A DNA stretch of 64,000 nucleotides from Squalus acanthias (Eukaryota), in the NCBI GenBank assembly GCA_030390025.1, contig CM059432.1, positions 61,754,001 through 61,818,000 on the forward strand, read 5' to 3'. A model generated the notes under the pieces. The model made no database searches, was not told the origin of the DNA, and was given only the letters and a program-made list of their open reading frames with translations. Below are positions 12,019 to 52,315 of the stretch, piece by piece. A program made the position numbers and the translations under genes. How positions within the stretch are numbered: the first letter of the stretch is position 1; every line of letters begins with the position of its first letter.

Positions 12019-12374
12019 ATTCAACCGCGGAAATACATACAGAGCCAGCGTACTATAGGTCAGACGGTACTATTCTCGCATTGCCCCAGTTTTGGTCAGT
12101 TTTATAAATGATCAGAAAATCTGGTCCATTGAATCAGTTGTGTGTATGTGCAAGTGCATGAAATTTCTGTCCATTCTCTGCCTGTCCACTAGATGGGGTC
12201 TTTCACCATTGAAAAATTTATGATGTTCATATTTTCTGCCTCCCTTTCCATGGAGTGAGGTGGACATTATAAAATTGGATAGCAAAATACTGCGGATGCT
12301 GGAAATACGAAATAACAACAGAAAACGCTGGAAAAACTCAGCAGGCCAGGCAGCATCCGTGGAGAGAGAAACAG

Positions 12375-12411
12375 AGTTAACGTTTCAGGTCGAAGACCTT
12401 TCGTCAGAACT
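12375..12411 (-). ncRNA. Minimal hammerhead ribozyme motif in PLE terminus
   Basis: Reverse complement reads AGTT-CTGACGA-A-AGGTC-TTC-GACCT-GAAA-CGTT-AACT. Confidence 0.75.
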
Positions 12412-14124
12412 GGAAAAAAGCAGGAAATTAAACAGATTTTAAAGTAAGTTTAGGGCTGGGAAAAGGGGGAGGGGATGAAAGAACAAAAGGGAAGGTCAAT
12501 GGTAGGATAGAAAGCAGGAGAGATTAAGAGACATTGAGAGACATTAAGAGATATTCAAGGCAAGAGGAGGTGGAAATGGGACAGGTTGAGGAACAAAGGA
12601 TGGCTCTAGATGAAGTGTGAACTGCGCTGGCAGAATGGAGGACAGCTGCCAGCTTCTGGGAGGGAAGAAAAAAAAGGCCAAACAAAAGTGTGGATAAAAA
12701 AATAAAATAAAAAAATATATATATATATGTGATAGGGGCCGAGGTTATGATCTGAAATTGTTGAACTCTATGTTGAGTCCAGAGGGCTGTAGAGTGCCTA
12801 ATCGAAAGATGAGGTGCTGTTCCTCGAGTTTACGTTGAGCTTCCGTGGAACAATGCAAGAGGCCGAGGACAGTGAGGTCTGAGTGGGAATGGAGCGGTGA
12901 ATTAAAGTGACAGGCCACCAGGGAGCTCGGGGTCCCCCTTACGGACTGAACGGAGGTGTTCCGCAAAGCGGTCACCCAATCTGCGTTTGGTCTCCCCAAT
13001 GTAGAGGAGACCACATCGTGAGCAGCGAATACAGTGTACTAAATTGCAGGAAGTACAAGTAAATCGCTGTTTCACCTGGAAGGGGTATTTGGGGCCCTGG
13101 ACATTGGGAAGAGGGGAGGTATAAGGGCATGTGTTGCATCTCCTGCGCTTACACGGGAAGGTGGCGGGTGAAGGGGAAGGGGTGCTGGGGGTGGTAGAGG
13201 AGTGGACTAGGGTGTCGCGGAGGGAGCGGTCCCTGCGGAATGCTGAAAGGGGAGGTGAGGGGAAGATGCGTTTGGTGGTGGGATCACGCTGGAGGTGGTG
13301 GAAATGGCGGAAGATGATCCGTTGAATGTGGAGGCTGGTGGGGTGAAAGGTGAGGACAAGGGGAACTCTATCGTGGTTCCGGGAGGGAGGGGCAGGGGTG
13401 AGGGCGGAAGTGCGGGAGATAGAGCGGACACGGTCGAGGGCCGTGTCAACCACAGTAGAGGGGAATCCTCGGTTGAGGAAAACGGAAGACATGCCGGAAG
13501 CACTGGTATGGAAGGTGTCATCGTCAGAGCAGATGCGGCAGAGATGGAGAAACTGGGAGAATGGAATAGAGTCCTTACAGGAGGTGGGGTGGGAGGACGT
13601 GTAGTCCAGGTAGCTGTGGGAGTCAGTGGGCTTGTAGTGAATGATTGTCAATAACCTATCCCCAGAGATGGAGACGGAGAAGTCGAGGAAGGGAAGAGAA
13701 GAGTCGGAGATGGACCATGTGAACATAAGAACATAAGAACATAAGAAATAGGAGCAGGAGTAGGCCAATCGGCCCCTCGAGCCTGCTCCGCCATTCAATA
13801 AGATCATGGCTGATCTGATCCTAACCGCCAATCTACTATCTATCACAGAACCATCTCCTGCATCTAACAGAATTGCACACACGAAATAGGAGCAGAATCA
13901 GGCTACACAGTCCCTGGGCCCGCTCCACTACCCACAGGGCCATGACCGGATCCGAACCTAGACTCATGTCCAAATTCCTGCCCGCTCCCCGTAACCCTTA
14001 ATGCCCTTTACTTCTAGGAAACTGTCTATTTCTGTTTTAAATTTATTTAATGATGTAGCTTCTACAGCTTTTTGTGGCAGCATATTCCATGGACCTACCA
14101 CCCTCTGAGTGAAGTAGTTCCTCC

Positions 14125-15978
14125 TCATCTCAGTTTTGAAAGAACAGCCCCTATTCTAAGACTATGTCCCCTAGTTCTAGTCTCACCCATCATCGGGAAC
14201 ATCCTCCCCGCATCCACCCGATCCAACCCCTTCACAATCTTATATGTTTCAATAAGATCGCCTCTCATTCTTCTGAACTCCAATGAGTAGAGTCCCAATC
14301 TACCCAACCTCTCCTCATATGACCACCCCCTCATCCCCGGGATTAACCGAGTGAACCTTTTTTGCACTGCCTCGAGAGCAAGGATGTCTTTCCTTAAGTA
14401 AGGACACCAAAACTGTATGCAGTATTCCAGGTGCGGTCTCACCAATACCTTGTACAACTGAAGCAATACCTCCCTATTTTTATATTCTATCCCCCTAGCA
14501 ATGAAAGCCAACATTCCATTTGCCTTCTTAATCACTTGCTGCACCTGCATACTAACCTTTTGAGTTTCGTGCACCAGGACCCCCAGATCCCTTTGCACTT
14601 CAGTACTCTCCAGTTTCTTGCCATTAAGATAATAAATTGCTCTAGGATTTTTCCTGCCAAAGTGCATCACCTCACACTTTCCAGTGTTGTATTCCATCTG
14701 CCAAATCTCTGCCCACTTACTTAGCCTGTCTATGTCCCCTTGCAGGTTTTTTATATCCTCCTCACTCACTACTTTCCCTCCCATCTTTGTATCATCTGCA
14801 AATTTTGATATGTTACACTTGGTCCCTTCCTCCAAATCGTTAATATAGATTGTAAAGAGTTGGGGACCCAGCACTGACCCCTGTGGAACACCACTAGTTA
14901 CTGATTGCCAGTCTGAGAATGAACCATTTATCCCAACTCTTTGCTTTCTGTTAGATAGCCAATCCTCTATCCATGCCAGAATATTACCCCCAATCCCGTG
15001 ATTTTTTACCTTAAGCAATAATCTTTTGTGTGGCACCTTGTCAAATGCCTTTTGGAAGTCTAAATACACTACGTCCACTGGTTCCCCTTTATCCACTCTA
15101 TATGTTACTTCCTCAAAGAACTCCAGCAAATTTGTCAAACATGACTTCCCCTTCGTAAAACCATGCTGACTTTGTCCTATTAAATTATGATTATCCAAAT
15201 GTCCTGTTACTGTTTCCTTAATAATGGACTCCAAAATTTTACCTACCACAGATGTTAGGCTAACCGGTCTATAGTTACCAGCCTTCTGTCGACTGCCCTT
15301 TTTAAATAAGGGTGTTACATTAGCAGTTTTCCAGTCTGCCGGGACCTTAGCGGAATCCAGGGAGTTTTGAAAAATTATTACCAATGCATCTACAATCCCT
15401 ACCGCCACTTCCTTCAAGACTCTAGGATGTAAGCCATCAGGTCCAGGTGATTTATCCGCCTTGAGTCCCATTATTTTACCGAGTACCACTTCCTTAGTGA
15501 TTTTGATCGTGTTTAGCTCCTCTCCCCCTATAGCCCCCTGTTTGTCCAGTGTTGGGATATTCTTAGTGTCCTCTACTGTAAAGACTGATACAAAATATTC
15601 ATTCAGTGTTTTTGCCATCTCCATATTTCCCACCATTAATTTCCCGGTCTCATCCTCTAAGGGACCAACATTTACTTTAGCCACCCTTTTTCTTTTTATA
15701 TAACTATAAAAACTCTTACTATCTGTTTTTATATTTTTTGCTAATTTACTTTCATAATCTATCTTCCCTTTCTTAATCAATCTTTTTGTTATTTTTTGCT
15801 GCCTTTTAAATTTTTCCCAATCTTCTGTCCTCCCACTAGATTTCGCTACCTTATATGCCCTTGTTTTTAGTCGAATACTATCCTTAATTTCTTTACTTAG
15901 CCACGGATGACTATCCTTTCTTTTACACCCTTTTCTTTTCAGTGGAAGTTGTAAAATAACTCCTTGAATGTACACCAC
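14125..15978 (-). pseudogene. CR1 ORF2 reverse transcriptase part (frameshifted from the endonuclease part near 15940-15978 and again near 14130)
   Basis: KSPGPDG, NYRPVSLTS, LDFQKAFDKVPH, GVPQGSVLGP, FADDTK. Confidence 0.92.
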
Positions 15979-16898
15979 TGATCATGTGTCGTCTTACCCT
16001 TTAATCTATTTTCCCAATCCACTCTACTCAATTCCGCTCGCATACCTTCATAGTCTCCTTTATTCAAGCTTAGCACGCTTGTTTGAGATCCAACCTTCTC
16101 ACCCTCTAATTGAATATGGAATTCAACCATGTTATGGTCACTCATTCCAAGGGGATCCTTTACTAGGACATTTTTAATTAATCCTGTCTCGTTACACAGG
16201 ACCAGATCTAAGGTTGCTTGCCCCCTGGTCGGTTCAGTTACATACTGCTCAAGAAACCCATCCCTAATACACTCAATGAACTCATCCTCAAGGCAGCCCT
16301 GCCCCATTTGATTTGTCCAATTAATATGATAGTTAAAATCCCCCATAATTATAGATGTTCCCTTATTACATGCCTCAACTATTTCCTGATTGATACTCCG
16401 TCCAACAGAGTTGCAACTGTTCGGAGGCCTATAGACTACGCCCACTAGTGTTTTTTTCCCCTTATTATTCCTTATCTCCACCCAAACTGTTTCATTATCA
16501 TGATTTTTTGACCCAATATCATTACTCTGTATTACAGTGATTCCTTCCTTTATTAACATAGCCACCCCACCTCCCCTTCCTTCCTGCCTGTCCTTCCTGA
16601 TCGTTAAATAACCTGGTATGTTTAATTCCCAGGCATTGTCACCCTGCAGCCATGTTTCTGTAATGGCCACAATATCATAACCATATGTAGTTATTTGTGC
16701 CATTAACTCGTCTATTTTGTTACGAATGCTACGTGCATTCAGATAGAGAACTTTCAAATATGCTTTGTGGCACTTAGTTCCTGCTTTTTCACTTTTTACC
16801 ACTTTACCTTTTACTCCACACACTCTGTCCCTTCCTGCCACGCTCTGATTTGTGATTCCCCTACTGCTACCTATGTCTATGACCCTCTCTGTTGTCAT
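15939..16898 (-). pseudogene. CR1 ORF2 AP-endonuclease part
   Basis: YLNARSIRNK, ITETW, GDFN, LDLVL, SDH motifs. Confidence 0.92.
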
Positions 16899-16936
16899 TT
16901 TTATTTTTTGCTCTCTTGAAACCTCCCCCCCACTAA

Positions 16937-17893
16937 TTAGTTTAAAGCCCTCTCCACAGCCCTAGTTATTCGATTCGCCAGGACACTAGTCCCAGCACTG
17001 GCCAAGTGAAGTCCGTCCCAACGGAACAGCTCTCTCCTGCCCCAGTACTGGTGCCAGTGTCCCAAGAAGCAAAACCCATTTTTCCCACACCAGTCTTTGA
17101 GCCACGCATTCAACTCCCTGATTTTATTTACCCTAGCCAAATTTGCTCGTGGCTCAGGTAGTAATCCAGAGATTATTACCCTCGAGGTTCTGCTTTTTAA
17201 TTTGGCCCCTAGCTGCTCAAACTCCCTCAGCAGAACCTCTTTCCTTGCCCTATCTATGTCATTGGTACCAACATGGACCACGACAACTGGATCCTCCCCC
17301 TCCCACTCCAAGTTTCTCTCCAGCCCAGAGGAGATGTCCTTAACCCTGGCACCGGGCAGGCAACACAGCCTTCGGGACTCTCGCTCTTGGCTGCAAAGAA
17401 CCCTATCTATCCCCCTAATGATACTATCCCCTACCACTACAACATTTGTTTTTACTCCCCCCACTTGAATGGCCCCCCTTACCACGGTGCTGTGGCCAGG
17501 TTGCTCATCCTCCCTGCAGTCCCCGCTCCTATCCACACAGGGAGTAAGAGCCTCGAACCTGTTGGACAAGAGCAAGGGCTGCGGCTCCTCCAACACTGCC
17601 TCCTGGATCCCTGTACTTGCCTCACTCATAGTCACACCTTCCTGTCCCTGACCACGGGCTACTTCTGAATTAATTACTCTAATTGGTGTGACTACCTCCT
17701 GAAACACGGAGTCCAGGTAACTCTCCCCCTCCCTGATGTGTCGCAGTGTTTGAAGCTCGGACTCCAGCTCATCAACACGGAGCCGGAGTTCCTCGAGCAG
17801 CCAAAACTTACTGCAAATGTGTTCACTGTGAACATCAATGGTGTCCACCAGCTCCCACATATTGCAGCAGTAACACATCACCTGCTCTCCCAT
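16937..17893 (-). CDS. CR1 ORF1p: zinc finger / coiled coil + SGNH-type esterase domain (318 aa, open)
   Basis: CxxC start, LRLRVDELESELQTL coiled coil, VVGDSIIRG, VHVGTND and DGLHL blocks typical of esterase-bearing CR1 ORF1. Confidence 0.9.
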   Translation of the reverse strand: MGEQVMCYCCNMWELVDTIDVHSEHICSKFWLLEELRLRVDELESELQTLRHIREGESYLDSVFQEVVTPIRVINSEVARGQGQEGVTMSEASTGIQEAVLEEPQPLLLSNRFEALTPCVDRSGDCREDEQPGHSTVVRGAIQVGGVKTNVVVVGDSIIRGIDRVLCSQERESRRLCCLPGARVKDISSGLERNLEWEGEDPVVVVHVGTNDIDRARKEVLLREFEQLGAKLKSRTSRVIISGLLPEPRANLARVNKIRELNAWLKDWCGKNGFCFLGHWHQYWGRRELFRWDGLHLASAGTSVLANRITRAVERALN

Positions 17894-18107
17894 TCTATGT
17901 AATTAATTAAAAATTTATTATTTACCCTTCAGTTAATTTATGCCAGCAGTCTCCGCTACATCACAGATACCCGAGAAACTATAAACTATAGAATTGAAGT
18001 TTTGTATAAAAAAAAGAGAAATACTCACCAACCAATCACTTACCTGCTTTCTGGTGACGTCACACTTCGATTATTTTTACCTCTCTCCTGCTCTCGGCTT
18101 GGTGAAA

Positions 18108-18406
18108 GCCTACCTGGTCGCTGCCGCCTTTTACCGCCGCCGCCTCGCCGCTGTTGCTCCACCCAGGTCCGCCGCCTCTGTGGGCCTACCTGGTCGCTGC
18201 CGCCTTTTACCGCCGCCGCCTCGCTGCTGTTGCTCCACCCAGGTCCGCCGCCTCTGTGGGCCTACCTGGTTGCTGCTGCCTTTTACCGCCGCCGCCTCGC
18301 CGCTGTTGCTCCACCCAGGTCCGCCGCCTCTGTGGGCCTACCTGGTTGCTGCCGCCTTTTACCGCCGCCGCCTCGCCGCTGTTGCTCCACCCAGGTCCGC
18401 CGCCTC
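18108..18406 (-). repeat. 76-bp GC-rich tandem monomers (4 copies) at the CR1 5' end
   Basis: Units start at 18108, 18184, 18260 and 18336; the last is truncated at the element boundary. Confidence 0.93.
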
Positions 18407-19208
18407 ATAGTCCGTAAGGGGGACCCCGAGCACCCAGTGGCCTGTCACTTTAATTCACCGCTCCATTCCCACTCAGACCTCACTGTCCTCGGCCTCATAG
18501 TGAATGAAATTTTCTAGTTCAGGGCGAGAGCAGGACTGGAACAAAGAGTGTTCCACATATCCCACGAAAAGGCAGGCATAGCTAGGACCCATGCGGGTTC
18601 CCATAGCAACACCTTTGATTTGGAGGAAATGAGTGGACTCAAAGGAGAAGTTGTTCAATGTGAGAACAAGTTCAGCCAGGCGGAGGAGGGTGGTGGTGGA
18701 TGGGGACTGGTTGGGCCTCTGTTCAAGGAAGAAGCGGAGCGCCCACTGGCCATCCTGGTGGGGGATGGAGGTGTAGAGGGATTGTATGTCCGTAGTGAAA
18801 AGGAGGCGGTTGGGGCCGGGAAACTGGAAACTGTTAAAGTGGCGGAGGGCGTCGGAAGAGTCGCGGATGTAGGTGGGAAGAGACTGAACAAGGGGAGAAA
18901 AAAAATAGAGTCGAGATAGGAAGAGATAAGTTCCGTGAATTTCATTCACTATGCTTCCAATTTCCACCCTTCCCTCAACTGCCCATGGTCCATCTCCGAC
19001 TCTTCCCTTCCCTTCCTCGACTTCTCCGTCTCCATCTCTGGGGATAGGTTATTGACAAACATTCACTACAAGCCCACTGACTCCCACAGCTACCTGGACT
19101 ACACTTCCTCCCACCCCGCCTCCTGTAAGGACTCTATTCCATTCTCAGTTTCTCCGTCTCCGCCGCATCTGCTCTGATGATGCCACCTTCCATACCAGTA
19201 CTTCCGAC

Positions 19209-19955
19209 ATGTCTTCCGTTTTCCTCAACCGAGGATTCCCCTCTACTGTGGTTGACACGGCCCTCGACCGTGTCCGTTCTATCTCCCGCACTTCCGCCCT
19301 CACCCCTGCCCCTCCCTCCCGGAACCACGATAGAGTTCCCCTTGTCCTCACCTTTCACCCCACCAGCCTTCACATTCAACGGATCATCTTCCGCCATTTC
19401 CACCACCTCCAGCTTGATCCCACCACCAAACACATCTTCCCCTCACCTCTCCTTTCAGCATTCCGCAGGGACCGCTCCCTCCGCCACCCCCTAGTCCACT
19501 CCTCTACCACCCCCAGCAGCCCTTCCCCTTCGCCCGCCACCTTCTCGTGCAAGCACAGGAGCTGCAACACCTGCCCTTATACCTCCCCTCTTCCCACTGT
19601 CCAGGGCCCCAAATACCCCTTCCAGGTGAAACAGCGATTTACTTGTACTTCCTGCAATTTAGTATATTGTATTCGCTGCTCACGATGTGGTCTCCTCTAC
19701 ATTGGGGAGACCAAACGCAGATTGGGTGACCGCTTTGCAGAACACCTCCGTTCAGTCCGTAAGGGGGACCCCGAGCTCCCGGTGGCCTGTCACTTTAATT
19801 CACCGCTCCATTCCCACTCAGACCTCACTGTCCTCGGCCTCTTGCATTGTTCCACGGAAGCTCAGCATAAGCTCGAGGAACAGCACCTCATCTTTCGATT
19901 AGGCACACTACAGCCCTCTGGACTCAACATAGAGTTCAACAATTTCAGATCATAA
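19209..19955 (+). pseudogene. PLE ORF C-terminal part: RT thumb/linker + GIY-YIG endonuclease
   Basis: CxxxxCxxC linker, LVYCIRCSRCGLLYIGETKR, and a QPSGLN ending typical of Penelope ORFs. Confidence 0.88.
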
Positions 19956-20271
19956 CCCCGGCCCCTATCACTTATATATATTTTTATTTTATTTTTTTAT
20001 CCACACTTTTGTTTGGCCTTTTTTTCTTCCCTCCCAGAAGCTGGCAGCTGTCCTTAATTCTGTCAGTGCAATTCACACTTCATCTAGAGCCATCCTTTGT
20101 TCCTCAACCTGTCCCATTTCCACCTCCTCTTGCCTTGAATATCTCTTAATGTCTCTTAATCTCTCCTGCTTTCTATCCTATCACTGACCTTCCCTTTTGC
20201 TCTTTCATCCCCTCCCCCTTTTCCCAGCCCTAAACTTACTTTAAAATCTATTTCATTTCCTGCTTTTTTCC

Positions 20272-20308
20272 AGTTCTGACGAAAGGTCTTCGACCTGAAA
20301 CGTTAACT
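20272..20308 (+). ncRNA. Minimal hammerhead ribozyme motif in PLE terminus
   Basis: CTGACGA (20276-20282), stem II AGGTC/GACCT, GAAA (20297-20300), palindromic ACGT stem III, stem I AGTT/AACT. Confidence 0.78.
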
Positions 20309-20689
20309 CTGTTTCTCTCTCCACGGATGCTGCCTGGCCTGCTGAGTTTTTCCAGCGTTTTCTGTTGTTATTATAAAATTGGAGTTTTTGATCTTGCTCC
20401 ATCTGCCATCGGGAAGTGAAGAGGGTTGAAAATATACAACAATGAAAGAACTGAAATAAAAATGGGAAAAGGATGAAAATAAAATATCTGTATTGATAAG
20501 AATGCTCAATAATATCCCTCTGTACATGAGAGAGTATCATTATTTGTAATAAGCTACAAAATCTGTTATAAATTAGTCTTTCTTTTTGTAGATTCATGAC
20601 ATCCAATAAGTAACACCTTAATTTGTACTAACTGTGCCAGTTAACTGGAGCTGTTGGTTCCATTATCATAAATCTGTTATTTAAAACTT

Positions 20690-21838
20690 GGCTTTTCAGA
20701 AGGCATTCGATAAGGTGCCACACAAGATTAGGATTGAGGATTAGCTAATGGACAGAAATCAGAGAGTAGGAATAAATGTCTCATTTTCGGGATGGCAGGC
20801 TGTAACTAGTGGGGTGCCACAAGGATCAGTTCTTGGCCTCAGCTATTTACAATCTATATCAACGACATGGATGAAGGGACCGTGTGTAATGTTTCCATGT
20901 TTGCTGACGATACAAAGCTAGGTGGGAAAGTAAGCTGTGAGGAAGACACAAAGAGGCTACAAAGAGATAAAGACCGGTTAAGTGATTGGGCAAAACGTTG
21001 GCAGATGGAGTATAATGTGGCTAAGTGTGAAATTATCCACTTTGGTAGGAAGAATAGAAAAGCAGAATATTTTTTAAAAGGTGAGAGACTAGTAAATGTT
21101 GGTATGCAAAGGGATTTGTGGGTCCTTGTACATGAATCACAGAAAGTTAACATGCAGATACAGCAAGCAATTAGGAAGGCAAATGGTATGTTAGCCTCTA
21201 TTGCAAGGGGGTTGGAGTATAAGAGTAAGGAAGTCTTGCTGCAATTATATATGGCATTGGTGAGACCACACCTGGAGTACTGTGTACAGTTTTGGTCCCC
21301 TTACCTAAGGAAGGATATATTTGCCTTGGAGAGGGTGCAGCAAAGGTTCACTAGATTGATTCCTGGGATGTGAGGGCTGCCTATGAGGAGAGACTGAGCA
21401 GAATGAATCTACATTCTCTGGTGTTTAGAAGAATAGGGGTGATTTCATTGAAACGTATTAAATTCTTAGAGGGCTTGACAGGGTAGATGCCAAGAGGCTG
21501 TTTCCCCTGGCTGGGGAGTCTAGAACTAGGGGTCATAGTCTCAGGATAAGGGGTCAGCCATTTAAGACTGAGATGAGGAGAAATGTCTTCACTCAGAGGG
21601 TTGTGAATCTTTGGAATTCTCTACCCCAGAGGACTGTGGATGGTGAATCATTGACTATATTCAAGACTGAGATTGATAGATTTTTTTTACTAGGGAATCA
21701 AGGGATATGGAGATAGGGTGGAAAAGTGGAGTTGATGTAGAAGTTTAGCCATGATTTTATTGAATGGTGGAGCAGGCTCAAGGGGCATATAGCCTACTCC
21801 TGCTCCTATTTCTTATGTTTTTCTTATGTTCTTATGTT
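20690..21838 (+). mobile_element. 5'-truncated CR1 LINE
   Basis: FQKAFDKVPH remnant, FADDTK and LVRPHLEYCVQFW in ORF 20867-21373; (TTCTTATG)n tail. Confidence 0.92.
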
Positions 21839-30429: not shown

Positions 30430-31173
30430 GGCCCAGAAATTGATCTCGCTCTGTTCCCGCGGGGGTAAGCCTTCCCCGCGATGTCTCACCTCGCTTATGC
30501 TTTTTCTGATCCAGCTCGCACGAACTTGATGTTCCAGACAGCTGCTGTGCTGGGCTTGCGTATCCCAGCGGCGTAGTGAATTCGTGCGAGCTGTGGGATC
30601 ACGTGACTCAGTTAGAGCCAATGGCAGCACACCATCTTCCATTCATAAGTCTCACAGCATGGCTGTGAGACTTATGAATCTTACACCCCCCCAAAATAAC
30701 AGCTAAACCTCAATTAAATTTTAAAAAAAAACCATCACATTAATAAAATAAGTATAGTTAATTAAATTAACCATTTTAAATAAAAAATTAAATTTTTGAA
30801 AAAATTTAAAATCTTTTAAAAAGTTATAAAAATAAACTTACCTGTCTTTAAAGTCTATAAAAAAGATATACCTGTAAAAAAAAATTCAAAAAAATACTTA
30901 ATTCACTACTTACCTTCTTAAAAGCGGGTCTTACTCCTCCTTTTTACATTTCCAAAATCTTCCCTACTTACCTGCGCATCCAAAGCATGAAGTGCACAGC
31001 GTGCGCGCAGCCTGTAGCGCGCACGCGATGCACCCAGGCCCCGCCCCCTTTTCGGAAGAGCAATTGCCGGTTTTCAGCGCATGCGCAGGGCATGCAGAAA
31101 ACCGGCAATTGGAGTGGGAATACGCGAGAGTATGCAGTGCGTACTCTCGCGTCCCGGGATCAATTTTCGGCCC
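30430..31173. mobile_element. Harbinger-like MITE
   Basis: TIRs GGCCCAGAAATTGATC / GATCAATTTTCGGCCC; GC-rich ends, AT-rich core. Confidence 0.75.
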
Positions 31174-33169: not shown

Positions 33170-33930
33170 GAGCTTAAGAAATAGGAGCTGGAGTAGGCCA
33201 TTTGTCCCTTCGAGCCTGCTCCGCCATTCAACAAGATCATGGCTGATCTTCTACCTCAACTCCACCTTCCCGCACTATCCCCATATCCCTTAATTCCCTT
33301 AGTTCCCAAAAATTTATCGACCTCTGTCTTGAATATATTCAACGACTGAGCATCCACAGCCCTCTGGAGTAGAGTATTCCAAAGATTCACAACCCTTTGA
33401 GTGAAGAAATTTCTCCTCATCTCAGTCCTAAATGGCCGACCCCTTATCCTGAGACTGTGACCCCTGGTTCTAGACTCCCCAGCCAGGGGAAACATCCTCC
33501 CGGCATCTACCCTGTCAAGCCTCTTAAGAATTTTATATGTTTCAATTAGATCACCTCTCATTCTTCTAGACTCCAGAGAATATAGGCCTAGTCTCCTCAA
33601 TCTATCCTCACAGTCAGTCCCCTCATCCCAGGAACCAGTCAAGTGAACCTTCATTGCACTCCCTCTAAGACAAGTATGTCTTTCCTTAGGTATGATGTGG
33701 AGATGCCGGTGTTGGACTGGGGTGGACAAATGTGAGAAGTCGCACAACACCAGGTTATAGTCCAACAGCTTTATTTGAAATCACAAGCTTTCGGAGCGCT
33801 GCTCCTTTGTCAGGTGACGAAGGAGCAGCGCTCCGAAAGCTTGTGATTTCAAATAAAGCTGTTGGACTATAACCTGGTGTTGTGCGACTTCTCACATTTT
33901 TCCTTAGGTAACGAGACCAGAACTGTATCT
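33170..33930 (-). mobile_element. CR1 3' fragment carrying a PLE hairpin insertion
   Basis: ORF 33256-33765 RGDLIETYK..FFTQRVVNLWN; tail at 33175. Confidence 0.88.
33693..33898. mobile_element. Short palindromic PLE-terminus-derived element with hammerhead-like motifs and 12-bp TSD
   Basis: 85-bp arms 33728-33812 / 33815-33899 with one mismatch; TSD TTTCCTTAGGTA at 33681-33692 and 33899-33910; (C)TGACGA-A-GGAGC-AGC-GCTCC-GAAA-GCTT core. Confidence 0.85.
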
Positions 33931-34489
33931 AATGCAAGATGAGGACTGCTGGATCCAGGAGCTAAGTGCCTTTACACTTACCTCCTGGATCCACTGTCCC
34001 TGGCTAACCCAGCCCCCATGATCAGAGAACCCTCACCAGGCCTCCGATCCCCCCCTCAAGGCCTTCCCCGCCCCCCCCACCCCCATGCTCCTCCGGCCGC
34101 TGATCGTTCCCTATCCGCTGCCCCCCCACTCCTCCGGCCCCCAATCCTCACTGGACCCACCCCCGCTCCTCCAACTTCCCCCCAGCCCCTGTGCTGTTCC
34201 CAGCTTGCAATCTTCACCCGAGCCCCTACCATGCTGCTCCTGACCGCTCCCGGCCCCCGATCTTCACCCGACTCCCTCTCCGTGCTGCTCCCAGCCCCTG
34301 ATCTTCACCCCATTCTCCCGGCTTTCCCAACCACTTCAGAGCCCCCCTGCTCCAAACCCACCTTCCCCGTTATAATTCAGCCTATTATGTCCAACTCATT
34401 TGGTCTGGCGGGGAAGGGGGTTACTGCGTGCTTGGATCCAGAAACTGGCCTCCAAGCATCTGTGTTGCCCTTGTTTGTGCTAACTTAAT

Positions 34490-37400
34490 CAACAACAACT
34501 ACTTGTATTTATATAGCACCTTTAATGTAGTAAAACGTCCCAAGGCGCTTCACAGGAGTATTATAAGACAAAAAATTTTACACTGAGCCACATAAGGAGA
34601 AATTAGGGCAGATGACCAAAAGCTGAATCAAAGAGGTATGTTTTAAGGAGCATCTTAAAGGAGAAAAGAGAGGCGGAGAGGTTTAGGGAGGGAATTCCAG
34701 AGCTTAGAGCCTAGGCAACAGAAGACACGGCCACCAATGGTTGAGCGATTATAATCAGGGATACTCAAGAGGGCAGAATTAGAAGAGCGCAAATATCTCA
34801 GGGTTGTGGGGCTGGAGGAGATTACAGAGATAGGAAGGGGTGAGGCCATGGAGGGATTTGAAAACAAGGATGAGAATTTTGAAATCGAGGCGTTGCTTAT
34901 CCGGGAGCCAGTGTAGGTCAGCGAGCACAGGGGTGATGGGTGAACGGGACTTGGTGCGAGTTAGGACACGGGCAGCCGAGTTTTGGATGATCTCAAGTTT
35001 ATGTAGGGTAGAACGTGGGAGGCCAGTCAGGTGTGCGTTGTAATAGTCAAGTCTAGAGGTAACAAAGGCACGGATGAGGGTTTCAACAGCAGATGAGCTG
35101 AGGCAAGGGCGGAGATGTTACGGAGGTGGAAGTAGGTGGTCTTAGTTATGCCGCGGATATGTGGTCGGAAGCTCATTTCAGGGTCAAATATGACACCAGG
35201 TTGCGAACAGTGTGGTTCAGCCTCAGACAGATGTTAGGGAGAGGGATGTAGTCGGTAGTTAGGGAACGGAGTTTGTGGCGGGGACCGAAAACAATGGCTT
35301 CGGTCTTCCAAATATTTAATTGGAGAAAATTTCTGCTCATCCAGTGCAGGATGTCGGACAAGCAGTCTGACAATTTAGAGACCGTGGAGGGGTCGAGAAA
35401 AGTGGTGGTGAGGTAGAGCTGGGTGTCATCAGCGTACATGTGAAAACTGACGCAGTGTTTTAGAAATAGGAGGGGGCCAAGGATAGATCCTTGGGGGACA
35501 CCAGAGATAACGATGCAGGAGCGGGAAGAGAAGCCATTGCAGGTGATTCTCTGGCAACGATTAGATAGATAAGAATGGAACCAGTCGAGTGCAGTCCCAC
35601 CCAGCTGGACGATGGTGAAGAGGCATTGGAGAAGGATGGAGTGGTCAACCGTTTCAAAGGCTGCAGACAAGTCAAGAAGGATGAGGAGGGATAGTTTACC
35701 TTTGTCACAGTCACAAAGGATGTCATTTGTGACTTTGATGAGAACCGTATTGGTACTGTGGTGGGGCGGAAACCTGATTGGAGGGATTCAAACATGGAGT
35801 TGCGGGAAAGATGGGCACGGATTTAGGAGGCGACAACACATTCAAGGACTTTGGAGAAGAAAGGGAGGTTGGAGATGGGGCGGTAGTTTGCGAGGACAGA
35901 GGGGTCAAGGGTTGGTTTTTTGAGGAGCGGGGTGATGACGGCAGATTTGAGAGAGAGGGGGCAGTACCTGAGGAGAGAGAACTGTTAACAATGTCAGCTA
36001 ATATGGGATCCAGAAAAGGAAGTTGGGTGGTCAGCAGTTTGGTGGGAATAGGGTCGAGGGAGCAGTAGGTGGGTCTCATGGACAAGATGAGTGTGGAGAG
36101 GTCATGAGGGGAGATCGGAGAGAAACTGGAGAAAGATGTGAGTTCAGGGCTAGGGCAGGGGGGAACCTTAGAGGAAGTTTGGCCCGGTGGGCTAGGGGAA
36201 AGAAGGGAAGTGACAGAGGTAGCTGAACGGATGGTGTCAATCTTAGAGACAAAGAAGTCCATGAGCCCCTCACACTTCTTGTCGGAGATGAGGGTGGAGG
36301 AGACAGGGGAGAGGGGTTTAAGAAAATGGTTAGCCGTGGAGAATAGAAGCTGGGGTTTTATCTTTGCATTCCAGAATGAATCTGGAATAGTGAGCAATTT
36401 TGGCAGACGAGAGTAGGACCCGCTAATGCTTTATGTGGTCCAGCCAGATCTGGCGGTGAATGGCTAAACCAGTTGTCCGCCATATCCATTCAAGTCTGCG
36501 TCCCTGGGACTTAAGGGAGCGAAGATGAGGGCCGTACGAGAGAGAGTAATTGTTTTAATAGGGACTAGGGCATCAAAGGTGGTGGTGAGGGTGTGGTTGA
36601 GCAGATCGGTAGCTGCAGAAATGTCGTGGTGAATGGAGGGTCAAAGGCTGGACAGTTGGGATTTCGTAAGTGTAGTTGTAAGAGAGTTGGGAGAGAGCTT
36701 TTTCCAGGGGCTGACACAGAAGGAAGTAGGGTTGGGGGGTGGAGAAGGGGGATTTGGGTGGTGAGCGATACAAGGAAGTGGTCAGAGATGGCCTTACCTG
36801 CGATTGACACGATGGGAGTAGCGAGGCCATGAGAGATGGCAAGGTCGAGGGGGTGGCCGTGAATATGGGTTGGGGAGTTTACATGGAGGAAACTTCCTCT
36901 AAGGTTCCCCCCTGCCCTCGCCCTGAACTCGCATCTTTCTCCAGTTTCTCTCCGATCTCCCCTCATGACCTCTCCGTGCTCATCTTGTCCATGAGACCCA
37001 CTTCCTGCTCCCTCCACCCTATTCCCACCAAACTGCTGACCACCCAACTTCCCTGCATCCTTGGGTTTTAAAAGAGGTAGCTGCAGAGATATTAACCTTC
37101 CAGAATTCCCTAGATTCTAGAACAGTCATCAAGGATTGGAAGGTAGCAAACATAACCCAGCTATTTAAGAAAGGAGGAAGAGAAAAACCGGGGAACTATA
37201 GGCCAGTTAGCCTGATGAATTGAGTTGGAGGTTGAAATTACCGAGGATGAGAAGTCGCTCGGTGCTGAGGGAGGAAAGCAGTAAAGATATCTCGGAAATA
37301 ACATTTTTATGGTACTTAGGTGGGCGGTAGAGAGCGAGAATTTTAAATGAGAGGTGAAAAGGGTGGAATAAGGTGAGATGCTCAAAGAAGGAGAAAGTGC

Positions 37401-37910
37401 CGGAGGAGTAGGGGGACAGACCAAGGTATGATTTGGTGATGAGAGTCACACCGCCACCACGGCAGTCTGAACAGGGCAAGTGGTGGAAGGTATAGCCAGG
37501 CGGAGAGGCTTCATTTAAGGGTAAGGTGTCATCACCCCTCAACCAAGTTTCCGTCAGGGCCATGATGTCGATGCAATCATCCACGATAAGCTCATGGATG
37601 ACAAGGGCCTTGTTCGTAAGTGAACGGACATTCTGGAGGGAGATGCGGAGAGGGTCGGCGCTGGGAGGGGGGAGTTGGACGGGGAGGAGATTGGCAAGAT
37701 TTGCCCCCAGTGGGCGCGCTGGGCAGGAAGGTCGGCGAGAGAGTAGGATGGGACAGTTGGGGTTGCTGCTCGTAATGAAGCAGTGACAAGTGTCTCGATG
37801 GGCCCTTCGTAGGAAGCCAAGAGAGGCACAGAGGGAAGCTGTAGGCTTATCTAAGAGGGAGTCAAGCCTGGGACGGCGGCAGGAGAGTAGGAAGGTTGAA
37901 GAGTAATGCT
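34490..37910 (-). mobile_element. L2-clade LINE (same family as 6058-8995), rearranged at about 36890-37215
   Basis: DIMALTETWL, AAFETVDH, GVPQGSILGP, YADDTQLY on the minus strand; (CAA)n tail at 34490. Confidence 0.92.
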
Positions 37911-39609: not shown

Positions 39610-42545
39610 GTCAGTAACAGAGACCAAACTTTGATCTTATTGAGTAGACTCTGATACTGAGCCAACTGCTTAATAGGATGTATTTAGTCCATTTAGATTG
39701 CATTAGTGCTGGGTCTGTGAGTTTAACAATTAATGCGTGAGTATCCTTTTTGTTGGCTTGAAGTAACATAGCTTTCTAATTACTGTTATATTATCTAATG
39801 AATGTGGAAAAGGATCACCTAATCAAAATACCATGTGGTATAGGAAACGATGTTCAAAAATTCTATACAATCCCAAGGGGTCAAGTCATTTTACAGAACA
39901 ATTTGGAAATCCTATAGTCTTAAAAGTAAATATATTTTATAGATTTAATATTCCAAAATAATATCAAAATATCATTGACTATTCTTAAAAGGAATGAATT
40001 AAGGATAATTTGAACCATATCTTTACTTTCATTGGAGCATCCCCATTAAAAGGTAGTATGATAGTGAAGAGCAATTGTATTTCAATACCATGGGATGTGG
40101 GTTCCAGATGCTTCCCATAGGGAGCAAACAGATACTTGCAGACTCTGAGCCACTTGTTCAGCTGAATAATGCTGCATGGAATGGGGGGAATAGCATCAAA
40201 CATTACATAGTTTAACAATGTGCAAGTGTTCATGCAGTGTAGGGACATACCAACTGATAGATTGTTAAAATAAATTTATCCCAAGCTATCACATACTGAA
40301 ATTATTAATCAAATATTAAGTTGTGTCAAACTATCAGCAAAATGAGGGAATTCAGCGTTTTGCACATGAATATGTTAATTTCACTCTACAAACCACTGCT
40401 CATTTGGATGGTGTATTTTAATTTGTACATGGGATAGTAGCATTGTTAATGAACTAAAGTTGCTAAGTCCCTCCAGTACTTGTTTTACTGTCCCAAAGAA
40501 TATCTACTGTCTCTATCGTGCAGGATGTGAGTAACCAAACCAAATATTCACTTGGCTTTATTGTTCATCTCAGTGACATGTCTGTTAACCGATAGGTTAC
40601 AATCCTGATGATTAAGAGGTTAAACATCAGTTGACACAGTTCTTGCATTATTTCATTACCTCACAAAGGACACTTTCAGTATTAATTGATAGTAGGTGAA
40701 TTAATGTTTAAACCCACAGACTCTGCTGCTTGCTCATTAGTTTGGTTAGCATTCTTCCCACATTTATAAATGAATAAGAAGGTGATACTCTCACTGTAGG
40801 GACAGTAGAATTGTAGTAAGTAACAAAAGTGTATATGTTGCCAGCTAACGCCAGATACAGCAAGGGAATTGGCAAGAAATTCCAAATATTAATCTGATCT
40901 CATGCTTCATGAATTAGTTCCTTAAATGTTTGTATTGCCTAAATAGATTTTAAGGATCATACTTGTGGCTGCAGCAAGATAGAATCCCTGCAAAAGATTA
41001 TCTTAAATGTCTGAACAAGTGGTGAAGAATGTTTCCTGGGGGCTTGCTAGAGATTTAATCAAAAATGATGGGACCTAGCGCTTACCTTCTTGCCTCGAGC
41101 TTTATCTGTAGTTTGTGAATATGCATAAATGGGTAGCTTTGATAAAATATGGCAGTTACTTGCCTGTTATGTAGAAATTAATTGTTGCTTATTTACATTT
41201 AATAGCTATGCAGTGGTAATTAATGAAAATTCATACCAGGACAAATAAATAAAATACAAATAACACCTTTAAGAGACTAAGGAACTAAAGTTCCTGAGCG
41301 TGGAGGGTGCATCTAGAGTAGATCAGCCACGTGAGGGGAGGCAGGCTTTGGGACAGAATCCGGATAGATCCATCTTCTGCTCCATTTCCACTCCATCCTG
41401 AATTCCAATTGGGTGGGTGGTCAAGGGATGGTTCCACCTGCTCCACTTGTATCTGGGCTGAGACTTTGGGGGGGTGTCTAGGCACATTCTCAGACTACTC
41501 CAGGAGTTCTGCCCAATATGCCATCCAGTAGGCCCACATGACTTGTTGTTCTTTATACCCCAGAGAGCTGGAGTATGTCCCATACTGGGCCTTGGGAAAG
41601 TCCCAAACTGACCAAAACAAAGGTAATTGACCCTAGAGGGGACCAATTACCTTTCAAATGATGGCCTTTTGCTTGCTTAAGAACATTGCAAAACATTATG
41701 GCCCCTTTTTTCTTTAGCCTTAGCTGGGCCTCAGTGTCCCTGGTGGGATTGTCAGGTGCCACACCGACTACCGCCTCTCTTCAGGATGGGGCTCTGTTGC
41801 ACCTCTGATAAAATTTCACTTTGAAAATCTGATTTGTGCTGTGCAGGTAAGAAGTTATATATTGATTCTTGTGCCTCCTTCAAAAGATAATCTGAGGTGT
41901 CTCGAGTATTGAGCATTTGCAGATTGCAGTTCTTTGTTCTAATCTCCAGTTTGAATTGTTGTTCTAAAATTTATTTGTTTAATTAAAAAGGAGATAATTA
42001 TACCAAGCTGGTGTGAACTTGTTAGATGATGCCATTGTAGTTATTTACAAAATGGACAAGAAACCTCCAGGGGTTAAAGTTTTTATATGTGCTATTTTTA
42101 GCGCTTCCTCTCTCCGCTATTTTAACATAGCTGCTGACACATATATTGTAAATGGGTTAACAAGTGCATCAAACTAGCACAGGTAGGATCACATTAATCA
42201 GTGCACTAAAAACAGTAAAATTAAACAACGTTAAAACCTCCTAGGTATAGTATGGTTTACACTTGTGATGGTCAGTCAGCAAACTCCTCACCTCAGTCAC
42301 AATGATTGTTTTTTGTTGATGAAGGCAATTTAACAGTAATAGTTAAAGCAAAAAACACATGTGCACACAGCACTGAAAAACTGACAAATGGAGTATTTGT
42401 CATGTATTGAAGCAGCTGGATTGCTAGATTTTTTTTTAAATTAGTTTATTACACATTTTTTATTAATTTAATGTCCAAACCTTTTTATGGGATGAGGGTT
42501 TTGGTGCCTGTTTTAGGTTTATTTGGTTTTTCTCATTTAGATATT

Positions 42546-43757
42546 GGCCCGGATTTTGCAGTAGGGATAACAGTGAGGCTATCAGCACTCACCATTATAA
42601 TGGAGTAAATCGGACAGCACATGGGCAGTTAAATGCGGAAATCAGGAAGTTGCTGTCCGATTTGCCTTGCTCCTCCACAAGCTTCACTACACGCCGGGAG
42701 ACTCTGCATGAAATACATGTGAGGGCGTGAAGTTACTGTACTTCCCCACTAGATACCCACGAAGCACACCAGAAAAAGTTAGGGCTTGTTCATTCAAGTT
42801 TAAGTGAATTTTTAATGGTGTGCTAAGTCTTAATTACTGCCAAACAACCACTCTGGCATTCCTTCCAATTTTAATTAGTGTTTTAAAAAATGTAAAAACT
42901 AAAATACTTTTTTTTAACTTTTTTTATTCCTTTCTCTTAATCCCATCTTTCTTTCCCTCCTTTATTTTGCTTTCTGTACATGATTTTACATTGAATTAAA
43001 CATTCTAACTTACACTTCCTGGTTTAGACTCTGCAGGGGGAGTTTTAACATAGGAGTGGGTGGGTGTGCTTGCGGATGGTGGGTTAAATGGGGCAAAATT
43101 GGAAGCGTGTCGCGAAACTGGCACAAACCCGCCGACTTCCAAGTTTTACCTGAGGCGGAACAAGGAGTGGGCAGCCAACCTGCTCCCAGGAGGCGGGTTG
43201 GCACTTCAAATATTATAATGAGGTTGGAAGCCTCAGATTTAATATGCTTTGCAGGTTTAACTGTGGCCGGCCAGGGTTCCTGGGCCTCGGGATTCCCAGC
43301 TGCTGCAGCGAGGTGAGGACAGCCTTGGGGAGCTCTTCTTATGGACCGGGAGGAGCAGGAGTGCATCTTCCCACCCCCCTAAGCTCCTCCACCATCAGCA
43401 CCCATACTTAAATCTCCACAGCATGCGGGGAAACCCAGAAGTCTGGGTTTTCCACACGCTACTGGATCTCCCCCCATCCCCTCTCCACCCCCGACCTCCC
43501 TGCTCCCAGTGGGTCTGCAGGTAAGATTTTGGCCTGCGTGTCTCAGTAAGGATTCTTCAATCTGATTGGTTAAAGAGACACGCTGTTGCTTGGCCTGCTC
43601 ACACAGGCCCCAGATCCCCTGTAGAGGGCACCATGCTGAAATGGCTCTCTAATTACCGTAAGTTGTTACGCAAAAGCCCATAAAATGTCTGTGGGCCACT
43701 GTAAGCATAATGAATGGCGAGTGCCATTTGTTCCTCTCTGACTGTAAAATCCGGGCC
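42546..43757 (+). mobile_element. MITE family A copy 3, with a nested GC-rich element at about 43037-43535
   Basis: Perfect TIR GGCCCGGATTTT / AAAATCCGGGCC; 3-bp TSD ATT; the host element resumes after 43535. Confidence 0.82.
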
Positions 43758-44651
43758 ATTGTAAAACGTCATTTAATTTAAAAGTGCAGTGAGGAGCACT
43801 GATATTATATTCAGAGCTTTGTAACTGGCAGTAATATAAAGATATTCAACAATGAATGTCTGCCACTCACTCACTGTGGAAACCTAACTGTGAAGAAGAA
43901 ACTGGAAACTTGGCACCATACAGAGGAAATCGGTATGCGCGACAACGATCATGAGATGTTTTAATTCTTATTTGCCAATCTGAGGTTGGTATCCTTTTTT
44001 CAAACCATAAAAACTCAATTTCACTGTTAGCTGAAAATGATACAGAACAAGGCTAGTATTGGTTTGAAACATGAAACTTAGGGCAGGAATTTCCTCCGAG
44101 CTGCTCCCGTTCCAACGCTGTTACTTCGCCGGAAGTGCAGCAGAAAAACCATTTGGCACGTGAATGGGGTTTGCAGCGAAGTTACGGCAGCGGGCCGAGA
44201 ACAGCTCCGAGGACATGCCAGCCGAAGCTACTGCTTCAACAAGAAGTTTACAGACTCTAAGTCCAGGAGACAGAAGAGGGTTTTTCTTTTCATTTCAAGT
44301 TCTCTCCCCAGCACGTTAGCCTTTCTTGAATAGTGCACGTGGAATTGCTTGTGAGAAAGTACCACTTGTAACTGGCCCGAACTATTATCACTCATGTCTT
44401 TTAAGATCCTATCTAAGCAAAGTTACTATTTTGATCAGTCTTATTTTGAGTTTTCTTACAAACCATATTTTTTTTTTATTTCCGATATATCCATGTCTTT
44501 CTCTATAATTTTAATCATATATAAGCTCTTTCAGTTTATTGTTTTTTTGGCATGTGATTACATTATAAATGCTGTTCACAGTATTGCTTTAAACCTGTTT
44601 CCCCAGTATTATTGCGTATTCTTTGTTTAGTCTTCTTATCTCATTAAATAG

Positions 44652-47345: not shown

Positions 47346-47904
47346 GCGTTCAGCGTAGCCTCAGCAGGGAAGAGTGTCCTGCAATTTCATTTCAGCGGTG
47401 TTAGGGGGAGAATAGTCCTTTACTCCACACAAGCCCCAAGTATGGGGAGGGTGAAATTTCCCTTCCTACTGGGCCCTGTTTTGGTCACAACGGCATGGGG
47501 AGTGCTTCTGTTAGTAAAACGCAGTTTAAAAAATGTGCAGGTGAGGTAAGTTTCTTCTTTTCACCAGTTTCACATGCGCAGTGGCCGAAAAACAACTGGT
47601 GATGTCGGTGTTTAAACAGTCGGCAATAACAGCTTCCTAAAGGGAAGGGAAGGGTGCTTAGAATGGTTTTCAGATTTGTCAGGATTTAAAAGGGATGAAG
47701 TATGAAGCATTAAACCAGGCATCCACCACTCTTCTTGTGAACTCCAGACAGTCTCTCACCTCCTATGGACGGCGCCATTTGGCTGCCAGAGACCCCATTT
47801 TGGACACATGACAGGATTTTATCAAAATTTCATGAAATGGCTTTCCATTCAGATGGATTTGGGCACTGAGTGAATTCTGCTGTCCAAGAGCCAACAGACA
47901 CTGT

Positions 47905-50310: not shown

Positions 50311-50767
50311 GGTCCACTTCAAAAATGCTGATATCACACCCTTCCACAAAAAGCCCACCCTCAGCACCTCTGTCCTTGCACACTATCACCACAGTCCCAA
50401 AAACTCTGAATACTATTTAATAAGAACACAATTTGTTTTGCTCACTGCAAATCAGCAGCCCTCGCAATGATACATTGTACATGGTATAACAACTCCTTTG
50501 TTATAAAATAGTGCATCCTCCAACTGACAGTGAACAATGGCATGGGAGATCCACTTATATATTATCTAAATACCTGTACCTTATTGAGAAAGAGAGAAAA
50601 ACAAATATAAGAGAAGTGGGCAGAGAAACTATGAGTGAAATGACAGAAGCAAAGAGAAAAGCAACATAAGTTAATATTTTAAGCACTGACCTAAAATAAA
50701 TGCACCTTAAGTAAATAATTTACCATTACTGATTTTTATTCATAGCTAACAAAGGCCTTTGTTACTA

Positions 50768-51871
50768 ATACAAAAGCAAAATACTGCGGATGCTGAAACT
50801 CTGAAATAAAAACAGAAAATGCTGGAAATACTCAGCAGGTCAGGCAGCATCTGTAGAGCAAGAAACAGAGTTAACATTTCAGGTCGATGAGTTCTGATGA
50901 AGGGTCATCGACCTGAAATGAAGGCTGCGATTTTGCCGGAGCTCAGAGAGGCGGGTCAGATGTTAAAGTCCTTTTGATTGACGGCGGGTCCCGAACCCGC
51001 CGTCAACCCGCCTCCAAACAACGTTCCCAAGTGTCGGGTCCCCAATTTGCGAATGGACCCGACACGTAGCAGCGGGAAACAGATTAAAGGCAATTACCTG
51101 CATATTAACAGGTACTTGTCAGTAGTTTTCAGCCTGTTTTTGGATTTTCCCGCTTCTGGGTCGGGCTTCACGACGTCCAGACAACAAGCCAGGCAAGTGT
51201 GGCGTGTTGTGAATCTGGTGTAATGTTTGTGAAAAGATGACAGCTGCAGAAGTGGTGTGAAGGATGCAATGTTGCACATGGTGAGTTTCAGAGCAAAGAA
51301 AATGTTGGTTACTGCATTTTTAAACATATACAGATTTCTTTAGCTTACAAGTTTTTAAATCCAGCTATATGTCCAGTGCCACCTCATTGGGAGAACCTCT
51401 CTCACCAGTGACAGATTGCTTCTGTCTCTCACCTGCAGCTGCCATCTATTCCAGCAGATGAGGGAGTCATTGGAGAGTCTGGGTGCAAGAGTTCACCTTT
51501 GTGCAGTGATTGTCAGTGTTTTCAGCACCTCAATGCTGTCAAACGCACAGAAATCAACTGTCAAAATAAAATTGTGCATGGTCCCTTTAAGGAAACTGGC
51601 AGATGACGCGTCATCAAATGACGTCATCAGACCCGCTTCCTGTTAAATGACCGGCAAGCCCGTGGGCGGGCTTAACAAGGCCAATCAAAGGGAAAATCAC
51701 ATCTGTGGAGCTGAGGCAGCTGGGGGTGGGACTGGAACCCGGAAACCAGCTGACCCCCCCACCCCCGCCCATCCCGACACCGAACAGAAAATCGCAGCCA
51801 TTAACTCTGTTTCTCTCTCTATAGATGCTGCTTGACCCGCTGAGTATTTCCAGCATTTTCTGTTTTTATTT
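50768..51871. mobile_element. Short inverted PLE-terminus element (same family as the 12280/20369 termini), interrupted by a MITE
   Basis: GCAAAATACTGCGGATGCTG.. left arm; CTGATGA-AGGGTC-ATC-GACCT-GAAA at 50894-50918; right arm resumes at 51801; TSD-like CCTTTGT(T/A)ACTA at 50756-50767 and 51872-51883. Confidence 0.82.
50923..51799. mobile_element. Harbinger-like MITE
   Basis: TIR GGCTGCGATTTT / AAAATCGCAGCC. Confidence 0.8.
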
Positions 51872-52315
51872 CCTTTGTAACTATGGTTCTTTCACATTTG
51901 CACAAGGAAAAGTGATCATATATTCTGACAGCCACAAGTAACATCAGCTTCACATAAGGATATGAGAACTTTGAGTAACAGGAAAAACCTCTGGTTGCCA
52001 CATCCTACTGACTGATCAGGCAAGATCAGAAGCTCATGTTGATGTACTATCAAACACAAGAGTGAGAACACATCCAAAAGTGCATTTATCCAAGAAATCT
52101 CCATTTTCATACGTCAACCACCCCACCGCCCCCTCCCCACCCACCCACCATCACACTTTTCACAATATTCCTCAATCCCATCGCTCTCTTCCCAGATCAG
52201 TTTGATGTAAATATCGCAAATTAACTTGGTGGTATACCCATTCTAAAAAATTTTTTTAATCAAACTAATTTAAACGTAATACTGCTGCAATAGTGAAACC
52301 TAAGGAAAGAACTAT

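Follow-up and report, generated by a model that had tools for sequence, protein, structure and literature searches.

Three head-to-head insertions in the window

The window analysed here is a 64,000 nt stretch of the genome of the shark Squalus acanthias (GenBank assembly GCA_030390025.1, contig CM059432.1, positions 61,754,001 to 61,818,000 of the forward strand), and all coordinates below are positions within it. It contains three insertions derived from Penelope-like elements (PLEs), here named E1 (12280-20369), E2 (33693-33898) and E3 (50768-51871), E1 and E3 demonstrably and E2 by its architecture only. In all three, two PLE copies are joined head to head with their RNA 3' sides facing the target, one arm carries an extension, or tail, of 31-36 nt, and a target site duplication (TSD) of 12-14 bp flanks the whole. 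This is the layout of inverted arms, one-sided extension and TSD that a sequence-only reading had proposed, and its 30-35 nt for the extension agrees with the lengths measured, 31-34 nt in E1 and 35-36 nt in both E2 and E3. The ranges arise because 3 (E1), 1 (E2) and 1 (E3) nt at the tail-less end fit the element as well as the target. As the structures are inverted, calling the tail-bearing arm 'left' is arbitrary.

E1 lies between identical 14 bp TSDs at 12266-12279 and 20370-20383 (plus strand), the first 3 nt of the latter fitting the element too. Its tail (12280-12310, minus strand), found on this arm only, is 31 nt, or 34 nt when the target is credited with the 3 nt that fit both it and the arm, and stops approximately 7 nt short of the common family end. 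The outer part of the left PLE copy (12311-13722, minus strand) comprises the terminal repeat with its hammerhead, a GIY-YIG endonuclease and the reverse transcriptase (RT) thumb, as placed using tblastn with four PLE relatives. The inner part (18497-18937, minus strand) holds the RT core, includes an unpaired loop (18513-18937), and at 18937/18938 abuts the 5'-truncated, tail-less right copy (18938-20369, plus strand). The arms, 12311-13719 and 18984-20372, share 95.5% identity over 1,409 columns and differ by 44 substitutions and 20 gap columns, with 10 CpG-type transitions. Both copies are truncated at ordinary coding positions and an in-frame deletion has taken the YIDD motif out of the left copy; the locus is dead on account of this deletion and the two 5' truncations.

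The two parts of the left copy are separated by a nested, near full-length long interspersed nuclear element (LINE) of 4.7 kb (13723-18408, minus strand) with Pfam matches to RVT_1, Exo_endo_phos and Lipase_GDSL_2, a domain set from which we take it to be of the CR1 type. It has an esterase in open reading frame (ORF) 1 (a 321 aa frame), an apurinic/apyrimidinic (AP) endonuclease, an RT, an ORF2 that is broken into two frames near 15950, about four 76 nt repeats (18108-18406) in its 5' untranslated region and an 8 nt repeat at its 3' end, which is also present at five other places in the window. CR1 took the place of approximately 25 nt of the left PLE copy, and no TSD was seen at the junctions inspected. 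The 88 nt insertion at its 5' junction (18409-18496, plus strand) was copied from the PLE arm, being 97.7% identical to 19754-19841 and 96.6% identical, inverted, to 12859-12947, and looks like templated end-joining repair. A 9 nt stretch recurs on both sides of this insertion.

Of 3,737 candidates with 484-2,000 residues, 43 were related to the protein of the E1 right copy at E <= 1e-20. The best are from Stegostoma (62%) and Chiloscyllium (60%), in keeping with a cartilaginous fish as the most likely host, and both RT and GIY-YIG were listed for 5 of the 43. Four full or partial relatives used in tblastn placed RT core, thumb and endonuclease in order onto the E1 fragments. The Pfam GIY-YIG match (E = 2.7e-4) lies below the curated cut-off and is weak alone. 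The CCHH motif, with both cysteines between GIY and YIG and its histidines downstream, aligns with that of the relatives, and a CX4CxxC linker motif is present in both E1 copies. The former is described as a feature of the endonuclease of endonuclease-bearing (EN+) PLEs and the latter as one of Neptune and Nematis (PMC8557442). From its CX4CxxC motif the E1 family would belong to the Neptune or the Nematis clade, which this motif does not separate; the vertebrates treated in the available part of 10.64898/2026.07.22.740005 have Neptune and Poseidon only. In E1 (12280-12356) and E3 (50768-50850), both on the minus strand, an ATG just 3' of the hammerhead opens a frame of 25 and 27 codons, respectively, which crosses the tail and reaches the end of the element. 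As in other PLEs, the ORF may have the tail at its start.

E2 is inside an old CR1 fragment, between 12 bp TSDs at 33681-33692 and 33899-33910 (plus strand) that match exactly. A tail of 35-36 nt (33693-33728, minus strand) is followed by a palindrome (33729-33898) with arms of 84 nt each, at approximately 33729-33812 and 33815-33898. A whole minimal hammerhead with one core change is contained in the left copy, which begins at the 5' strand of helix I, while the right copy is truncated and starts inside the hammerhead core. No coding sequence is present in E2, the window contains no longer relative, and the E2 motif returned no match among viral sequences.

In E3, the 12 bp TSDs at 50756-50767 and 51872-51883 (plus strand) differ at one position. 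The left copy (50768-50889, minus strand), consisting of the tail (50768-50803) and the arm, is truncated inside hammerhead helix II. The right copy begins at the 5' strand of helix I with an inner part that holds the hammerhead core (50890-50921, plus strand) and resumes in a tail-less outer part (51801-51871, plus strand). The outer arms, 50803-50874 and 51801-51872, are 72 nt long and 93% identical, beyond which the extension measures 35-36 nt. Approximately 14 inner nt of the right copy are absent from the left, and the tail of the left is absent from the right. The right copy is interrupted by a non-coding 877 bp element with 12 bp terminal inverted repeats (TIRs) at 50923-51799, presumably Harbinger-like, that sits at the TTA of the predicted hammerhead cleavage triplet and is flanked by an imperfect 3 bp duplication. 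Non-coding elements with similar ends are found at 42545-43758 and approximately 54500-55170.

E1 and E3, which are 87.9% identical over 116 nt, are of one family, as had been proposed; E2 has only the hammerhead core in common with them. Judged by sequence, E1 and E3 form a Neptune-like family and E2 belongs to a second. The TSDs are real and not chance matches. A single pair among 1,500 random window pairs matched exactly over at least 12 nt (slack 3 nt), and this 20-mer was probably a repeat; none of 1,500 further pairs matched when one mismatch was allowed. Moreover, the region of the E2 12-mer is single at both of the paralogous CR1 sites in the window (ending at 21302, minus strand, and 14400, plus strand), as expected of empty sites. 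Chance TSDs were ruled out on this basis, and one integration pattern is shared across two PLE families.

In miniature inverted-repeat transposable elements (MITEs) of DNA transposons, the TIRs are symmetric and the TSD is short and fixed. With their one-sided extension of 31-36 nt, TSDs of 12-14 bp and retroelement ends, E1, E2 and E3 are not MITEs. All three are dead insertions of EN+ PLEs in the form of inverted copy, tail and TSD.

This architecture is the published signature of EN+ PLEs, here in a shark family, and adds little to it. The regularity of extension and TSD, earlier singled out as deserving quantification, is already in print: inverted pseudo-long terminal repeats (pLTRs) are described with a tail of 30-40 bp and flanking TSDs of 8-10 bp. 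In Pen2a_Av and Pen2_Av of Adineta vaga, an inverted pLTR is arranged head to head with a 31 bp tail at one end and an 8-10 bp TSD proven by an empty site (Arkhipova et al. 2013, PMC3846280). As far as these elements are described there, E1, E2 and E3 differ in their longer TSDs and in lacking a full ORF or a direct pLTR pair; two of them are cut down to approximately 0.2 kb, and the inverted arm of E1 goes far into the ORF. EN+ PLEs typically have an inverted truncated copy and a tail of 30-40 bp that is often confined to one end (Craig et al. 2021, PMC8557442), and Drosophila virilis Penelope has inverted repeats of copy-dependent size and a 34 bp repeat (PMC2377424). Our insertions share with these the inverted 5'-truncated copy, the 30-40 bp extension, variable arms and a hammerhead in the terminal repeat, but have no partial tandem and include a shark Neptune-like family rather than Penelope. 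The accessible parts of PMC12910113 and PMC8969392 contain nothing beyond the general EN+ scheme.

Insertion sizes, hammerheads and element ends

The raw spans of E1 (8.1 kb) and E3 (1.1 kb) consist mostly of nested foreign elements. With the nested CR1 and the 877 bp TIR element removed, the PLE-only lengths are 3,316 nt for E1 and 225 and 206 nt for the short two, so that most of the size spread is due to the later entry of CR1 into E1 and of the TIR element into E3. The size continuum proposed for these insertions fails here, as one is long and two are short and nearly equal. Three insertions neither show nor exclude a continuum across the genome; these three do not form one. An annotator could take palindromes of this sort for MITEs, and what looks like a series of sizes can be an effect of nested insertions.

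We wrote a minimal descriptor for type I hammerheads, which matched the two E1 arms and, with a single mismatch in the core, the E2 left arm; with the exact core, the only form run on shuffled sequence, it returned no matches in 20 Markov shuffles. The hammerhead of the E1 left arm, identified with this descriptor and a fold of helices I and II, is at 12376-12411 (minus strand), with the 5' strand of helix I at 12411-12408 and the predicted cut after 12379. In the E1 right arm the core is at 20276 (plus strand) and the predicted cut after 20304; the E2 left hammerhead, with its one core change, has a predicted cut after 33785. The descriptor found no match in E3, where the hammerhead is interrupted, or in the E2 right arm, where it is truncated, and Rfam at E <= 5 returned no hammerhead and three chance-level matches. 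The sequence-only reading had placed hammerhead motifs near the termini; motifs do lie within approximately 130 nt of each end, though for E3 and the E2 right arm the descriptor does not recover them.

The same reading had both target ends primed from the termini of the element RNA, for instance hammerhead-cut ends, with random truncation then producing a smooth range of sizes. The proximity of the hammerheads, the 5' truncation that is general in PLEs according to PMC8557442 and the ordinary coding positions at which the E1 copies stop are all consistent with such a scheme. However, the tail-side ends are 99 (E1), 92 (E2) and 105 nt (E3) downstream of the predicted cut and the tail-less ends 65-68, 56 and 69 nt, respectively. 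At 56-105 nt from the cut, these are not ribozyme-made termini. The sizes without nested elements, one long and two short, also speak against it, as do the ribozyme mutants that insert normally in vitro in PMC11167929. We therefore consider priming from RNA termini very improbable; what stands of that proposal is the head-to-head joining, with RNA 3' sides at the target.

Folds of the terminal RNA were not clearly better than those of shuffled sequences (z -0.9 to -1.9), so no stem-loop is claimed at the start sites. A 20 nt motif of the tail had two matches in metagenomes, both attributable to chance as no further similarity accompanied them, and none in viral sequences.

Non-LTR retrozymes likewise derive from PLE termini, are short and non-coding, carry type I hammerheads and also occur in a chondrichthyan (10.64898/2026.07.22.740005). 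As described in the part available, they are direct tandem arrays in which each unit has a whole type I hammerhead, whereas E1, E2 and E3 are inverted pairs with tail and TSD. Retrozyme membership was rejected as the copies are inverted and only one of the two copies of E2 and of E3 has the hammerhead core. Minimal PLE hammerheads of metazoans have the same short helix I and palindromic helix III and also occur in opposite-strand pairs, in Schistosoma 100-700 bp apart (Cervera and De la Pena 2014, PMC4209133).

Elsewhere in the window, two small near-perfect hairpins with arms of 18-19 bp (30641-30679 and 33950-33993) have no hammerhead match. Most other long inverted repeats come from two copies of another LINE family in opposite orientations, at 6117-8821 and 34667-37664, which are approximately 90% alike and 26-31 kb apart. 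Nested degenerate inverted arms, 71-81% alike, extend over approximately 1.5 kb at 2373-3841, probably an old DNA-transposon derivative. The GC-rich segment 48432-49009 has long open frames with a coiled-coil-like translation, for which Pfam matches are weak and below cut-off. Of 79 open frames taken from non-repeated, mostly low-GC parts of the window, three had weak Pfam matches, all below cut-off, from which no host gene could be named; no host exon was identified by which to place the insertions in the one intron set presumed in the sequence-only reading.

Element ends across the family

Contigs of four of 24 runs (X1, X5, X6 and X9) from three organisms, one of them with two runs, were placed on 12110-13129 at 80% likeness. 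Between 46,379 and 139,061 contigs, rather than raw reads, were placed per run, and the results below refer to the rows listed, namely 24 of 3,802 loose ends, 15 of 301 joints and 40 of 409 letter rows, which have no background distribution. An X1 contig that spans the left junction of E1 (12112-12301) has no differences from it; on this evidence an assembly artefact was rejected, X1 possibly being the source sample and the contig then not independent. The left flank of E1 (12110-12245) is covered by low-depth contigs from two other organisms, with two differences listed in X9. X6 and X9 cover part of the E1 flank in this way, and in the rows listed no empty site of E1 or E3 was seen. No frame with a family match was found in this flank, which may be conserved non-coding or exonic sequence.

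Loose ends accumulate at three places. Before 12281 they number 237 (X1), 160 (X5) and 280 (X6) contigs, with approximately 8-10 further conserved letters; before 12309 and 12310, 535 and 574 contigs end in X9; and behind 12410, 209 (X1) and 237 (X6). These are the seven of the 24 loose-end rows that lead into long unrelated flanks. As the first two piles match the tail and tail-less ends, both ends recur throughout the family, though in the rows listed the tail-less pile is found in X9 only and the tail pile not in X9.

The third pile falls at the hammerhead: in the 5' strand of helix I, 12410 is the second base. In E3 the longer copy begins at 50890, which corresponds to 12411 or 12410, and in E2, from the other family, the longer copy begins no more than 3 nt from the helix I strand of that element. 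Because E1 agrees with the family through 12417, the pile behind 12410 is not due to a private mismatch of E1. Depth falls 9- to 20-fold at 12416, but a subfamily variant after 12417 confounds this drop, which was left out of account.

These data bear on whether the 0.2 kb palindromes could be non-autonomous units, MITE-like or short interspersed nuclear element (SINE)-like, that were transcribed and re-inserted whole, their size being inherited. The near-equal size of such units in two families (206 and 225 nt) would be accounted for, and PLE products of this general kind are on record: PLE proteins mobilise pLTR-bounded cargo in trans, as set out in PMC3846280, and PLE termini yield the non-autonomous retrozymes of 10.64898/2026.07.22.740005. 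Yet none of the 15 listed joints changes strand, no second copy of the E2 or E3 centre is present in the window, and these centres are asymmetric and unlike each other. The one-sided tail and 12-14 bp TSD are, moreover, the same as in the kilobase insertion E1. Whole-unit insertion thus appears improbable.

Probable priming at both target ends and a possible boundary at helix I

The likeliest mechanism, and to us a probable one, is priming at both ends of the cut target, with the two cDNAs joined head to head. The GIY-YIG endonuclease would nick an AT-rich target on both strands, with 12-14 nt between the nicks, a stagger suggested by the TSD. Each freed 3' end would then prime reverse transcription internally on the element RNA, internal starts of this kind being demonstrated for a lizard PLE. 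Two favoured positions, separated by 31-36 nt and lying 56-105 nt downstream of an uncut hammerhead, would serve for this and leave the tail on one arm. Each cDNA would be extended until truncated or until it reached a boundary at the 5' edge of helix I, and the two ends would be joined head to head with an overlap of 0-3 nt and the gaps filled. Short products would give palindromes of 0.2 kb and long ones arms of kilobases; CR1 entered E1, and the TIR element E3, later.

The orientation of the copies fits this scheme, as both have their RNA 3' sides at the target, as target-primed first strands would. At the tail-less end of E1, the 3 nt common to element and target read ATT. In vitro, the Poseidon element PAc of Anolis carolinensis cuts both DNA strands and extends from both, with ATT as the preferred cut motif; reverse transcription starts internally on uncut RNA at two sites, the interval between which is the tail, and ribozyme mutants insert normally (Frangieh et al. 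2024, PMC11167929). E1, E2 and E3 resemble PAc in having two ends about a tail length apart downstream of the hammerhead and an AT-rich target, as well as in the ATT at the E1 junction. PAc is of another clade (E1 has the zinc-finger motif in its linker), and the text of PMC11167929, so far as available, has no model of inverted double insertions or 5' ends.

Joining could also have been preceded by priming at one target end only, with the cDNA or an antisense RNA folding back on itself; the copied arm would stop 31-36 nt short and be joined to the second target end. PMC3846280, in its available part, reads palindromic junctions in this way, as self-priming on an antisense template. In E1 and E2, the arm with the tail also has the longer inner part, an arrangement that fold-back explains equally well. 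In E3, each arm holds sequence absent from the other, so neither can be a plain copy of the other. Unless its centre was trimmed later, E3 favours two separately primed cDNAs. Extension from both strands, with start sites at both borders of the tail, as seen in PMC11167929, is also at odds with self-priming, which we regard as unlikely, if clearly less so than the other alternatives.

Several points weigh against two-end priming as set out above. There are only three insertions, and the steps are reconstructed from them. The asymmetry of E3 could stem from a later deletion at the centre of the palindrome. For E1, 35 of the 40 listed letter rows were compared between the arms, two flank rows, two tail rows and 12452 having been dropped. 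The arms carry the same letter at 27 of these 35 family-variable sites, the right arm having the family's other letter at eight, and they share six of the 11 sites at which the other letter exceeds 75% of depth in X1 and X5. The E1 arms are from one source lineage, which fits sister RNAs of one master and fold-back equally. The in vitro data are from a Poseidon-clade element, and E2 is not linked to any RT. Letters private to E1 beside 12281 and 12309-10 gather ends from several bases, so the sharpness of these piles is overstated. Finally, the absence of strand changes in the listed joints (0/15) and the flanks behind 12410, which are unrelated sequence and not mirror copies, indicate that many short copies are solo and not palindromes.

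Inversions of L1 by twin priming have inverted and direct parts that are different, non-overlapping stretches of one RNA. Both arms of the present insertions repeat the same terminal sequence; they are not of the L1 type, and the likeness is limited to two-end priming.

Published work does not settle the origin of the inverted copy or of the 5' junction, for which E3 and the pile of ends at helix I offer usable handles. A preferred 5' boundary at helix I, partly tested here, may be new. No report of 5' ends piling at helix I or of twin priming in PLEs was found in a literature search, outside which lay the subscription papers defining the tail (2005, 2006). The sequence of E1 at the boundary is a pyrimidine run followed by CCAG, which we take to be readable as an initiator and equally as a splice acceptor. 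In D. virilis the 5' end of helix I coincides with the end of an intron (PMC4209133), and that intron lies 46 nt after the start site (PMC2377424); the accessible text of PMC4209133 reports no copies ending preferentially at helix I.

The pile suggests a fixed, short cDNA intermediate. Tentatively, and with rather less conviction than we attach to two-end priming, short PLE derivatives may be a class of their own, made from run-off cDNA, whose 5' boundary is fixed at the first bases of helix I. The boundary would be the 5' end of the RNA, or a splice acceptor as at the D. virilis intron end. Reverse transcription from the tail sites of the upstream terminal repeat would run off after 100-135 nt, like retroviral strong-stop DNA; two run-offs from two target ends would give a palindrome of fixed size (206-225 nt), and one a solo unit. 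Shark genomes, where such junctions are hugely numerous, would allow a test by counting; if true, the tail, the formation of pLTRs and the multitude of solo hammerheads of vertebrate genomes would all go back to one intermediate.

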